Below, one piece after another: positions 1,678 through 5,986 of a stretch of DNA of 5,986 nt. The notes beneath the pieces are model-generated. The model was not told the origin of the DNA. It was given only the letters and a program-made list of their open reading frames with translations, and ran no database searches. Every line of letters starts with the position of its first letter. Positions within the stretch are counted from its first letter, which is position 1. This DNA is from a virus (taxonomy: Duplodnaviria; Heunggongvirae; Uroviricota; Caudoviricetes), in the IMG/VR virus record IMGVR_UViG_2778261446_000004; one strand, written 5' to 3'. Position numbers and translations under genes: made by a program.

Positions 1678-1700
1678 TTCGATTCCTGCAGGGGACACCA
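1678..1700 (+). other. 3'-terminal 23-nt fragment of tRNA-Arg (argW type, ...TTCGATTCCTGCAGGGGACACCA); candidate att core / direct repeat marking an integrative-element junction
   Basis: TTCGATTCCTGCAGGGGACACCA reproduces the T-loop, 3' T-stem, acceptor 3' strand and CCA end of E. coli tRNA-Arg(CCU) as I recall it. The upstream sequence (tttactt...) cannot pair as a T-stem or acceptor stem, so this is not an intact tRNA gene. It lies 161 bp upstream of the integrase start codon. Confidence 0.75.
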
Positions 1701-1861
1701 TTTATCAGTTCGCTCCCATCCGTACCAGTCCGCAAAACCCCCTGAATATCAAGCCTCCCGTAGATTCACAGTTCGTCATGGTTCGCGTCAGATCGTTGAC
1801 AGCCGCACTCCATGACGGGTAAAAAGTGGATAAAATAATTTTACCCACCGGATTTTTACCC

Positions 1862-3019
1862 ATGCTCACCGTTAAGCAGATTGAAGCAGCAAAGCCGAAA
1901 GAAAAACCATACCGTCTTCTCGATGGTAATGGCCTGTACCTTTATGTCCCTGTGTCAGGGAAAAAGGTATGGCAGCTTCGCTACAAGATTGACGGTAAGG
2001 AGAAAATCCTGACCGTAGGAAAATATCCGCTAATGACTTTGCAGGAGGCAAGGGATAAGGCATGGACTGCGAGGAAAGACATCTCGGTTGGCATCGATCC
2101 GGTAAAGGCGAAAAAGTCTTCGTCTAACAACAATTCCTTTAGTGCGATTTACAAGGAATGGTACGAGCACAAGAAGCAAGTATGGTCAGTAGGGTATGCG
2201 ACTGAACTTGCAAAAATGTTTGATGACGACATTTTACCTATCATCGGCGGCCTTGAAATTCAGGATATTGAGCCGATGCAACTGCTGGAAGTAATCCGCA
2301 GATTTGAAGATCGCGGTGCAATGGAGCGAGCAAATAAAGCCCGCAGAAGATGCGGCGAGGTTTTCCGTTACGCTATTGTCACCGGCAGGGCTAAATATAA
2401 CCCGGCACCTGACCTTGCTGACGCCATGAAGGGATACCGCAAGAAGAACTTCCCGTTTCTTCCAGCAGACCATATCCCTGCATTTAACAAAGCACTGACA
2501 ACATTTTCAGGAAGTATCGTATCGCTCATTGCGACCAAAGTTTTACGCTACACAGCCCTAAGAACGAAAGAGCTTCGTTCCATGCTATGGAAGAACGTCG
2601 ATTTTGAAAACAGGATTATCACCATCGACGCCAGTGTAATGAAGGGACGCAAAATTCATGTGGTTCCTATGTCAGACCAGGTAGTTGAACTTCTCACTAC
2701 GCTAAGCTCAATCACCAAACCAGTATCAGAGTTTGTTTTTGCCGGGCGCAACGATAAGAAAAAGCCAATTTGCGAGAACGCTGTACTGCTTGTGATCAAA
2801 CAAATCGGCTATGAAGGTCTGGAAAGCGGTCACGGATTCAGGCATGAATTCAGCACGATTATGAACGAGCACGAATGGCCTGCTGATGCTATTGAAGTGC
2901 AACTGGCACATGCCAACGGCGGATCTGTGCGCGGGATTTACAACCATGCTCAGTATCTCGATAAGCGCAGAGAAATGATGCAGTGGTGGGCGGACTGGAT
3001 TGATGAAAAGGTCTCCTGA
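1862..3019 (+). CDS. intS: P4-family tyrosine integrase, IntS-like (argW-associated prophage integrase), 385 aa
   Basis: The translation from the ATG at 1862 (MLTVKQIEAAKPKEKPYRLLDGNGLYLYVPVSGKKVWQLRY...) matches my recollection of E. coli CPS-53/KpLE1 IntS, and that start gives 385 aa. N-terminal DUF4102-like arm-binding region. C-terminal tyrosine-recombinase catalytic residues are present (conserved Arg in LRYTALRTKELR, HGFRHEF H-x-x-R box, Tyr in GIYNHAQYL). The upstream in-frame ATG at 1826 (ORF-track start) would add 12 residues and is an alternative start. Confidence 0.9.
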   Translation: MLTVKQIEAAKPKEKPYRLLDGNGLYLYVPVSGKKVWQLRYKIDGKEKILTVGKYPLMTLQEARDKAWTARKDISVGIDPVKAKKSSSNNNSFSAIYKEWYEHKKQVWSVGYATELAKMFDDDILPIIGGLEIQDIEPMQLLEVIRRFEDRGAMERANKARRRCGEVFRYAIVTGRAKYNPAPDLADAMKGYRKKNFPFLPADHIPAFNKALTTFSGSIVSLIATKVLRYTALRTKELRSMLWKNVDFENRIITIDASVMKGRKIHVVPMSDQVVELLTTLSSITKPVSEFVFAGRNDKKKPICENAVLLVIKQIGYEGLESGHGFRHEFSTIMNEHEWPADAIEVQLAHANGGSVRGIYNHAQYLDKRREMMQWWADWIDEKVS

Positions 3020-3346
3020 TTATATCGCCGGGTTATCGTCATCGGTGGCCCGGTTAATCAGATGCGTCAGAACAACCTTCACATCCACCTCATCCAAAAC
3101 CTCACCATCCACCGTTATCAGTGCATCACCTCTACGCTTGGCAAAGTGACAACCGCCTGAGTACGAAATCAGGTAGGTGCTTTCCGGCGATGGCTTCATA
3201 CCCTTCTCTATCACAGCAAACCCATGCGATGTCTCAATCACCAGGCTGTTAGCATTTACGCCGCAGATAGTCTCTATGGTTAGCGTGCGTTCAATATAGT
3301 CTTTTGCTGGCGATGGAAAACCCACGGTTGCCTCCACTCTTGACAC
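3020..3346 (-). CDS. UmuD'-like (peptidase S24 / UmuD-MucA family) protein, N-terminally truncated and possibly degenerate
   Basis: Near the N-terminus is GFPSPAKDYIE, matching the UmuD/MucA signature (UmuD: CGFPSPAADYVEQ). Later, RGDALITVDGEV resembles UmuD HGDIVIAAVDGEF. The ORF begins only 7 residues before the GFPSPA motif (UmuD has a 24-residue cleavable arm). I could not align a G-D-S-M catalytic-serine block (the region reads SYSGGCH). GTG start with no Shine-Dalgarno. A LexA box lies 22 bp upstream. Could be a remnant or pseudogene. Confidence 0.4.
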   Translation of the reverse strand: MSRVEATVGFPSPAKDYIERTLTIETICGVNANSLVIETSHGFAVIEKGMKPSPESTYLISYSGGCHFAKRRGDALITVDGEVLDEVDVKVVLTHLINRATDDDNPAI

Positions 3347-3387
3347 TGGATAAAAACACAGTGCAAATACTGTATATCTAACCAGTA
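3340..3387 (+). promoter_or_regulatory. SOS-regulated promoter region: -35 TTGACA (3340..3345) and LexA box TACTGTATATCTAACCAGTA (3368..3387) upstream of the DinI-like gene
   Basis: The box has the CTGT-N8-CCAG arrangement (consensus CTGT-N8-ACAG). Its 3' half TAACCAGTA is identical to the E. coli dinI operator as I recall it (ACCTGTATAAATAACCAGTA). A perfect -35 hexamer TTGACA sits 22 bp upstream of the box; no clear -10 was identified. The box ends 15 bp before the ATG at 3403, and AGAGGGAAG (3390..3398) serves as RBS. Confidence 0.6.
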
Positions 3388-5684: not shown

Positions 5685-5695
5685 AAGGTCACTTT

Positions 5696-5718
5696 GGCCG
5701 CCCGATCTCTGGGCGGCC
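5696..5718. terminator. GC-rich hairpin between convergent genes; possible bidirectional terminator or REP-like element
   Basis: Perfect 8-bp stem (GGCCGCCC 5696..5703 pairs with GGGCGGCC 5711..5718) with a 7-nt loop. Only TT follows on the plus strand and there is no U-tract on the minus strand, so terminator function is uncertain. Confidence 0.4.
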
Positions 5719-5737
5719 TTAACATACTCTTACTTCG

Positions 5738-5986
5738 TTACTCTGACGGTGTCGCAGGCCAGGTAATATCCGGCGCGGTAGAGGTATCCACAGCTTCCAG
5801 CGCATCCAGATAATCGAGCCACAAATTATATTGCGCCAGTTCGTCACCCTTCAGGCGACCAATAGCTGCTTTACCAGGCCATTGCCTACTGTTCATGTAT
5901 TCGTTGGCATGGTTAATCAATAATTGCCTCTCTGATTCGGCCTGTTCAATAAGTTCCTCATGTGATGGTGGAGGTATTTCAGCCCA
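5738..5986 (-). CDS. Phage tail fibre assembly protein (Tfa family), C-terminal part; gene continues beyond the window end
   Basis: The minus-strand frame is open from the window edge to the stop at 5738..5740. Its C-terminus (...LEAVDTSTAPDITWPATPSE) matches the conserved C-terminus of E. coli TfaE/TfaR-type proteins as I recall them (...VDTSTAPDIEWPAVP...). The ORF-track start at 5920 is a TTG inside this open frame, not the true start. Confidence 0.65.
   Translation of the reverse strand, partial: WAEIPPPSHEELIEQAESERQLLINHANEYMNSRQWPGKAAIGRLKGDELAQYNLWLDYLDALEAVDTSTAPDITWPATPSE

Follow-up and report, generated by a model that had tools for sequence, protein, structure and literature searches.

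What does a phage integrase gene announce when it is followed by two small genes that recall the SOS response, by a membrane acyltransferase gene and by a convergent tail-fibre-assembly gene (tfa)? The question is raised by positions 1678–5986 of a 5,986-nt stretch of DNA (the window, taken at its full length), IMG/VR virus record IMGVR_UViG_2778261446_000004. The first-pass annotation of this DNA saw in it the backbone of the Escherichia coli K-12 prophage CPS-53 (KplE1), in which O-antigen glucosylation genes had been exchanged for another cassette at a fixed conversion locus. Our results suggest a partly different answer: 1678–5986 is, in our judgement very probably, the left end of a lambdoid prophage that uses the KplE1/Sf6/HK620-type recombination module and whose accessory-gene (moron) slot was filled by mosaic recombination with a putative O-antigen-acetylating acyltransferase.

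The nature of the element becomes visible on the chromosomes that contain it. The window is present at 100% identity in three complete E. coli chromosomes, S163-2 (isolated from a pangolin), TUM9754 and DETEC-P61. In S163-2 the att core CTGCAGGGGACACCA is present as three direct copies, at argW, at window position 1686 and 42.2 kb further on, adjoining torI; argW therefore carries a tandem array in which the prophage comes second, and 1678–5986 is the left (attL) end of this approximately 42-kb element. From the middle att copy the genes are arranged as intS (copy 2), a small minus-strand open reading frame (ORF), dinI, the acyltransferase gene and the convergent tfa gene, beyond which follow the tail fibre, baseplate, sheath and head genes, a lambdoid early region, torI and dsdC. 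The prophage is lambdoid with a SEN34-like contractile tail, its virion genes being 96% identical to those of the E. coli phage vB_EcoM-611R5 and its relatives and 81% identical to those of Salmonella phage SEN34. At the far end, beyond the window, torI adjoins the third core copy and dsdC, and this end is 99% identical to its K-12 counterpart.

The att site (1678–1701, plus strand) consists of the last 23 nt of argW (1678–1700) and of the 16-nt IntS/KplE1 core CTGCAGGGGACACCAT (1686–1701), which matches exactly the core taken from the KplE1 literature (PMC2951348) and is the middle one of the three direct copies. ARAGORN detected no complete tRNA in the window, only the 23-nt fragment of argW. 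The attL arm and presumed intS promoter region (1702–1861, plus strand) lies inside a block of 96.9% identity that is common to K-12, CUS-3 and Sf6, the distance from att to int being preserved as well; for KplE1 the intS promoter is known to overlap attL (PMC2951348). The intS gene itself (1862–3019, plus strand) encodes a tyrosine integrase of the KplE1/Sf6/HK620/CUS-3 type with Pfam matches to Phage_integrase, Phage_int_M and Arm-DNA-bind_3, and the earlier assignment to the IntS type was borne out, as the protein agrees with K-12 IntS at 380 of 384 residues (99%). In DNA the window is 96.9% identical to the K-12 argW 3′ end and intS over 1,335 nt (1678–3012), the similarity running from the last 23 nt of argW to 7 nt before the int stop codon, and int is about 97% identical to its counterparts in Sf6, HK620 and CUS-3; the same module is also found in IME10 and others. 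All features of the KplE1/IntS recombination module are present, namely the 16-nt core, IntS adjoining attL and reading into the prophage, and TorI at the attR end, uncoupled from int. The sharing of this module by CPS-53, HK620, Sf6 and CUS-3 has already been described (PMC2951348).

Does the shared module make the element a relative of CPS-53 in which an "SOS plus O-acetyltransferase" cassette directly took the place of gtrABS, with short repeats or recombination motifs marking fixed breakpoints? The int–cargo–tfa order is common to both elements, the integrases are 99% identical, and similarity to K-12 ends a few nt from the int stop and returns a few nt from the tfa stop. Between these points, 3013–5742 (2.7 kb) has no similarity to yfdGHI by blastn, which agrees with the earlier claim of a cargo different from that of K-12; its description as an SOS module plus an O-acetyltransferase was accurate as well, since the cargo contains a HumD-like gene, two LexA boxes, DinI and an AT3-SGNH acyltransferase. 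In blastn of the whole window against the K-12 locus only att-intS and yfdK were matched, and nothing matched yfdG, yfdH or yfdI; gtrA and gtrB were thus not found downstream of int, no protein-level search for GtrA or GtrB having been made on the window; Pfam recognised DinI and AT3 plus SGNH only among the cargo ORFs. The K-12 gene order had been given essentially correctly (argW-intS-yfdG-yfdH-yfdI-yodE-tfaS-yfdK-yfdL), with one correction: in K-12 the intact gene convergent with int is yfdK, whereas tfaS, which shares the strand of int, is a pseudogene.

The common backbone, however, does not extend beyond these resemblances. The 3′ part of tfa lies at 5738–5986 (minus strand; the full gene encodes 144 amino acids (aa), continues past the end of the window and matches Pfam Caudo_TAP with 87 bits). 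Compared with K-12 yfdK it is 79.6% identical in DNA from 5743 onward and only 63% identical in protein, and apart from a 126-nt tail-fibre fragment and the torI/attR end the remaining prophage shows no relation to CPS-53. From 5743 onward, tfa and the C-terminus of the tail fibre are instead 95–97% identical to one arm of the e14-type invertible tail-fibre segments of many E. coli genomes (718 records in the 95–99% identity band). This similarity begins exactly where the two convergent tfa genes of such segments overlap, and the same border recurs in hundreds of genomes without int nearby. The layout of an e14-type segment is pinE, fibre tip, tfaE and tfa (locus L093, 2332–5070); of the other arm, K-12 has kept the tfaS pseudogene, and L029 and L078 have kept stubs of 13 codons.

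The borders themselves tell the same story. On the left, K-12 has a conserved, hairpin-bearing stretch of about 75 nt behind int, and here the HumD-like gene has taken its place. Neither of the two stretches named as cargo boundaries is a simple junction: 3020–3400 is occupied by the HumD-like gene and the LexA operator region, and 5685–5737, where the convergent acyltransferase and tfa genes face each other, is a spacer of 53 nt that contains a GC-rich hairpin. This hairpin (5696–5718) has a 9-bp stem, and the RNA fold of 5670–5750 reaches −23.8 kcal/mol (z = −3.46), with none of 200 shuffled sequences folding as well; a consensus terminator scan did not call it, and no T-run stands behind it. 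The short repeats or recombination motifs anticipated at the cargo borders were not found beyond chance: direct and inverted repeats are imperfect, 20 nt or less in length, and none of them pairs both borders. The locus does not qualify as a site-specific gene-cassette (integron-like) system. Moreover, the HumD-like module is joined to gtr genes in another element (L014), and hence does not belong to an acetylation cassette. Direct cassette replacement in a CPS-53-type element is thereby largely refuted, and we consider it very unlikely.

If the K-12 backbone is not shared, is the slot behind int nevertheless a place where surface-modification genes are exchanged? For a survey, 80 viral contigs with an IntS at least 98% identical were fetched from IMG/VR, and the 79 with downstream sequence were classified; as these contigs are dereplicated, the frequencies that follow reflect diversity and not abundance. 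The slot was empty in 30 of the 79 loci, 19 contained an AT3 acyltransferase, 11 gtrAB with a variable third glycosyltransferase and nine a hexapeptide acetyltransferase (neuO included); a GT2 glycosyltransferase, a GDSL esterase and a Wzy-like polymerase were present in one locus each, and seven loci held other genes. Pfam, applied to 25 representatives, confirmed 17 distinct AT3 clusters and 4 hexapeptide clusters; a home-made profile built from five AT3 sequences was dropped because it recovered only 10 of the 17 AT3 clusters recognised by Pfam. On its right side the slot is bordered in 68 loci by a P22-type tailspike gene and in nine by a gene for tail-fibre assembly or for a fibre. At the population level the proposed exchange at a fixed conversion locus is supported, as the slot is a hot spot for surface-polysaccharide modification genes of varied chemistry, whereas the CPS-53 backbone, the SOS genes as exchanged cargo and the border motifs that went with it do not.

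The region is a mosaic of modules. Position 1678–3012 has its nearest relatives in all IntS elements (border 3012/3013 against K-12, Sf6 and CUS-3). The part 3017–3335 is closest to L014 and to strain 19SZHZ869Rt (93–95%, with the alignment counted from 1678; border 3324–3335), and 3296–3669 is closest to the HumD–dinI pair with which a lambda-like prophage of YPE10 ends (85%). The stretch 3670–5742 is unique, and from 5743 the half-segment of e14 type described above begins. At least three classes of left junction can be distinguished. Most elements, including K-12 and the "empty" myovirus-type loci L029 and L078, keep the hairpin stretch of about 75 nt, and in others, the window included, a HumD-like gene abuts the int stop. 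The int plus HumD-like module, 93–95% identical to the window, is joined in L014 to gtrAB, a glycosyltransferase and a tailspike, and in strain 19SZHZ869Rt to a different AT3 gene and a tailspike; in L050 the order is int, HumD, DinI-like gene, AT3 (minus strand) and tfa. A homologue 57% identical to the acyltransferase (Logan metagenome contigs L098 and L099) lies between tfa and dinI in opposite orientation to both neighbours, and the adjacent dinI is 65% identical to that of the window, with a similar upstream region. Since the SOS genes are elsewhere joined to gtr or to other acyltransferases, and since the 57% homologue is inverted, the arrangement of the genes indicates that the variable unit is the acyltransferase gene alone, between dinI and tfa and in either orientation. 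The SOS genes are an alternative int-proximal module.

The acyltransferase gene (3789–5684, plus strand) encodes a 631-aa AT3-SGNH membrane protein, the variable conversion cargo of this prophage. It combines an N-terminal AT3 domain (PF01757, 117 bits) with a C-terminal SGNH domain (PF19040, 77.9 bits), and both scores exceed the Pfam cutoffs. Its GC content is 31–40% compared with 45–51% in the flanks, and among 5,426 complete E. coli genomes only the 3 that hold the whole window have its DNA. No match at E ≤ 0.01 was obtained in a sequence search against PDB; therefore the catalytic residues were assigned by alignment with BTP1 GtrC and with the help of the published list of AT3/SGNH motifs and residues essential in OafA (PMC7448272). 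The alignment comprised 11 sequences, namely the acyltransferase, BTP1 GtrC, the PAS61 acetylase and eight database homologues. Invariant in the AT3 domain are R16-X10-H27 of transmembrane helix 1 (TMH1), G35–D41 (GGYAGVD), F43–G48 (FFVISG), R73xxR76 and S116 of the TMH3–4 loop, and E327, the Glu following TMH10, is nearly so. The SGNH triad consists of S404 (in G402-D403-S404), D599 and H602 (in D599-S-S-H602), all of them invariant. Every catalytic motif of OafA/OafB on the published list (PMC7448272) is thus kept in the 631-aa protein.

On which glycan does the enzyme act? From family membership, and from BTP1, Sf6 and OafA/OafB, we infer that its target is the O-antigen, and likewise that it is enzymatically active and of selective benefit. 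The nearest phage relatives, PAS61 (47% identity), Tyrion (45%) and BTP1 GtrC (31%), are annotated as O-antigen acetylases, and together with g341c they all stand beside O-antigen-specific tailspikes or tail fibres; the best relative found anywhere is 59% identical. The motifs GG-F/Y-xGV-D and the Glu after TMH10, characteristic of fused AT3-SGNH O-antigen enzymes, are present. The alternative that another glycan is modified (peptidoglycan, enterobacterial common antigen, colanic acid or capsule), and that the locus is not strictly one of serotype conversion, appears unlikely in view of these relatives and motifs. Some observations favour it nevertheless: the AT3-SGNH architecture is common to the peptidoglycan O-acetyltransferase OatA (PMC7448272), CUS-3 has a capsule acetyltransferase in the same slot (though of a different fold), and BTP1 GtrC, the nearest experimentally characterised relative, is only 31% identical. 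The same acyltransferase family is also represented in E. coli by a gene beside a tailspike at a prophage end (L094), and in Proteus prophages by one that precedes the small terminase gene (L096).

What, then, are the small genes between int and the acyltransferase? The first (3020–3325, minus strand; 101 aa) corresponds to the coordinates of a PGAP coding sequence, and its stop codon abuts that of intS. Its N-terminus, MGFPSPAKDY, is the signature start of HumD/UmuD′. The protein scores 23.4 bits against the NCBIfam HumD model (cutoff 120) and has no Pfam match (S24 included), no GDSM motif and no recognisable Ser/Lys dyad, yet hhalign aligns its family profile end to end with full-length HumD (96.9% probability, E = 1.3e-10). 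Therefore, by profile comparison, the protein is best regarded as a divergent relative of HumD/UmuD′ (peptidase S24) and not as a member of that family. The AlphaFold model is weak (predicted local distance difference test score 59, predicted TM score 0.34), and Foldseek with this model placed UmuD and LexA on top with non-significant E-values (0.15 and above; UmuD 0.15), so that the homology claim is carried by hhalign. The possibility that a 108-aa ORF is a chimera of a HumD N-terminus and unrelated sequence was rejected, as the profile aligns with HumD over its full length.

The short HumD-like form represents an uncharacterised family without a Pfam model; its roughly 30 sequence clusters come from E. 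coli, Citrobacter and Pseudocitrobacter, and its length is conserved at 106 aa. Compared with this consensus, the gene in the window has lost 15 nt (5 codons) at 3080–3110, which correspond to one unit of a GEVLE/GEVLD tandem repeat. HumD-like genes stand beside, or converge on, IntS in seven to nine of the 79 viral loci (seven by ORF clustering; L025 and L087 in addition by tblastn). Homologues, either short (about 106 aa) or full length (127–149 aa), are found in L014, L027, L037, L050, L054, L056, L076 and L087.

All 12 HumD-like genes examined, including those of the window and of two E. coli strains, have a LexA box upstream, and in ten it reads CTGT-N8-ACAG. Two LexA-box-like sites are present here, site 1 at 3346–3361 (CTGGATAAAAACACAG), which is nearer to the HumD-like gene, and site 2 at 3370–3385 (TACTGTATATCTAACCAGTA; 17 of 20 consensus positions), which is nearer to dinI and lies 18 nt upstream of its ATG. 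The pattern CTG-N10-CAG occurs six times in the window where 1.1 occurrences are expected, and two of the six fall within the 77-nt intergenic region between the divergent HumD-like and dinI genes; around site 2, the DNA upstream of dinI is 69% conserved in L098. From these sites we infer that both the HumD-like gene and dinI are regulated by LexA.

The second gene (3403–3669, plus strand; 88 aa) matches Pfam DinI (PF06183) with 82.4 bits against a cutoff of 24.2, and its product is 38% identical to E. coli DinI and 91% identical to the DinI of the YPE10 prophage; the gene is found in other E. coli prophages at 88–95% DNA identity. The NCBIfam equivalog model for DinI gives 41 bits against a cutoff of 111. 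As the Pfam model is passed and the equivalog model is missed, the gene belongs to the DinI family without being an orthologue of dinI. It is followed by a terminator-like hairpin (3674–3707, plus strand; inverted repeat I21) with perfect 11-nt arms, a 12-nt loop and then TTTT.

Taken together, these features allow a mechanism to be proposed. The prophage would integrate by means of the KplE1/Sf6/HK620-type module, with the 16-nt core, IntS beside attL and the directionality factor TorI at the far end. The moron slot between int and the convergent late tail-fibre genes would hold three separate transcription units: a shortened, LexA-controlled HumD/UmuD′-like gene; a divergent, LexA-controlled dinI with its own terminator; and the low-GC AT3-SGNH acyltransferase gene, expressed from the prophage. 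Of the features expected of a moron, the last unit shows the drop in GC content to 31–40% and the hairpins at 3674–3707 and 5696–5718, whereas a consensus scan gave no sigma-70-like promoter upstream of its start at 3789. The AT3 domain is expected to carry acetyl groups from cytoplasmic acetyl-CoA across the inner membrane, and the periplasmic SGNH domain would then place them on the O-antigen, which could change the serotype and keep phages that depend on unmodified O-antigen from adsorbing. Production of the DinI and HumD-like proteins is presumably repressed by LexA, and under DNA damage both would modulate RecA and the SOS response. The origin of the arrangement would be ordinary mosaic recombination among phages, with borders at gene ends and no dedicated cassette mechanism, and about five modules with different nearest relatives would have been brought together: att-int, the HumD-like gene, the LexA operator with dinI, the acyltransferase gene, and tfa with the C-terminus of the tail fibre.

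Several observations weigh against this proposal. A consensus scan detected no sigma-70-like promoter either upstream of position 3789 or in the HumD/dinI intergenic region; AT3-SGNH proteins acetylate peptidoglycan and other glycans as well; the survey speaks of diversity only; and the HumD-like gene carries the five-codon deletion relative to its family. In addition, the late antiterminator gene Q of the prophage, outside the window, is split by a copy of IS1A (L004 23673–25073, in S163-2), and the prophage is probably unable to run its late genes. As Q is split, the element may be defective and its accessory genes could be decaying.

Is the cargo, then, a decaying remnant without present function in a defective prophage? 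On the one hand, Q is interrupted by IS1, the neighbouring element is also truncated by IS1, and the HumD-like gene is shortened, no longer encodes recognisable catalytic residues and contains the 15-nt deletion. On the other hand, all three cargo ORFs are intact despite the split Q, every catalytic motif of the acyltransferase is conserved, and three strains of different origin carry the 5,986-nt window without a single difference. Moreover, members of the HumD-like family in E. coli, Citrobacter and Pseudocitrobacter agree in length even where identity falls to 67%, and this constancy suggests purifying selection. A functionless remnant is therefore scarcely credible, and the prophage end with a moron slot filled by mosaic recombination continues to be the reading that we prefer.

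The junction between int and the HumD-like gene raises a further question, that of integrase control. Most IntS elements have, after the int stop, the conserved stretch of about 75 nt, in which an inverted repeat CACAAAGCCTTGCA...TGCAAAGCTTTGTG is followed by TTTTGTC (L002 2704–2780; also L029 and L078), and this stretch resembles a terminator. The window lacks it and has the HumD-like gene directly against int instead. Because the HumD-like gene and intS are head-on with abutting stops, a LexA box is present and the post-int hairpin is replaced, it is conceivable that DNA damage drives LexA-controlled transcription of the HumD-like gene antisense into intS and, together with DinI, couples the SOS response to integrase expression or excision. 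Integrase regulation in the IntS family is known to be atypical. We regard this coupling as speculative and improbable; a LexA-controlled HumD-like gene converging on intS with no intervening terminator could nevertheless be a new thread.

To the left of the att site the window belongs to another element. In S163-2 the middle att copy is preceded by yfdC, argW, intS copy 1, an O-antigen-polymerase-like gene, a hypothetical gene, IS1, another hypothetical gene and a serine recombinase gene. Most of this is a second IntS element of 5.9 kb in tandem at argW (window 1–1677; S163-2 locus L001 10734–16677), truncated by IS1, in which the int-adjacent slot contains a 447-aa O-antigen-polymerase-like gene; S163-2 accordingly carries two different O-antigen-related cargos behind two IntS copies in one strain. 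The window starts within a copy of IS1A (1–326; insA 51–326, minus strand), and the first genome search matched 9,679 records, most of them through IS1. A hypothetical gene (438–614, minus strand; WP_000409796.1) and a 208-aa serine recombinase (917–1543, plus strand) form the right end of the neighbouring island. The recombinase was considered as the invertase of the tail-fibre segment and rejected, as it lies outside the prophage, across att, and is part of that island. In strain S1-INA-02-A (L003 17108–20018) WP_000409796.1 is preceded by reverse-transcriptase and phosphoribosyltransferase-like genes; these two genes look like a retron-type defence pair, and this part was apparently deleted by IS1 in the strain of the window. 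The middle att copy has 8 nt of argW sequence to the left of the core (1678–1685), which the right-end copy lacks, and this suggests that the attP of the neighbouring island shares 23 nt with argW compared with 16 nt for the phage.

How new is such a locus? The seroconversion genes of such phages are known to lie near int-att-xis (Kapi1; PMC8787464), and the principle of a conversion slot is long familiar from work on Sf6, P22, CUS-3 and the KplE1 recombination module (PMC8787464, PMC2951348). The locus is a known fixed conversion hot spot shaped by known phage gene swapping and not a new mechanism; the prophage element and the acyltransferase allele are undescribed, the phenomenon itself is known, and the current understanding of module movement is left unchanged. 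What the locus adds is a rare AT3-SGNH allele which, if active, would create an O-acetylated serotype variant with altered phage susceptibility in the carrier strains. For the annotation of argW prophages a practical rule can be derived: variation is to be expected in the gene that separates the int-proximal module from the tail genes, most often an acyltransferase gene or a gtr cluster.

Each part of the locus has its counterpart among known systems. K-12 CPS-53/KplE1 has a 99% identical IntS, the same att core and site, TorI at the far end and a convergent tfa with a tail-fibre fragment after the cargo. It differs in that this cargo is gtrA-gtrB with a specific glucosyltransferase (yfdGHI), in that the post-int hairpin and the tfaS pseudogene of the invertible segment are kept, and in being a 10-kb remnant whose YfdK is 63% identical to the Tfa of the window. 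P1 HumD and E. coli UmuD′/DinI share the N-terminal GFPSPA-DY motif, a predicted S24-like all-beta fold and LexA boxes upstream; P1 HumD has about 129 aa, whereas the protein of the window has 101, lies far below the HumD cutoff and has no umuC-like partner nearby.

The virion module is that of SEN34 (Brunovirus) and of vB_EcoM-611R5, 606R2 and 683R1 (across baseplate and tail genes the identity is 81% with SEN34 and 96% with the vB_EcoM phages), and SEN34 also places an O-acetyltransferase between tfa and int. These phages have another integrase, early region and acetyltransferase, the one in SEN34 being a 363-aa AT3-only protein, and the vB_EcoM phages have at this position an invertible tail-fibre segment with its invertase. 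BTP1 GtrC and OafA/OafB share the two-domain architecture and all catalytic motifs, and the gtrC gene of BTP1 likewise lies between int and the tailspike; BTP1 differs by the 31% identity of GtrC, a P22-type integrase and a retained gtrA remnant. CUS-3 has the order attL-int-neuO-endosialidase with the same IntS at about 97% DNA identity. Sf6 is arranged as attP-int-oac-tailspike, with about 97% DNA identity over 1686–3012 and the same 16-nt core. Its Oac is a 333-aa AT3-only protein compared with the 631-aa AT3-SGNH fusion, it has no HumD-like or DinI genes, and it is a P22-like podovirus with a tailspike, whereas the prophage described here has a contractile tail with fibre and tfa. In both, an O-antigen acetyltransferase gene, assigned as such in the window by its family, occupies the place between int and a convergent receptor-binding tail gene.

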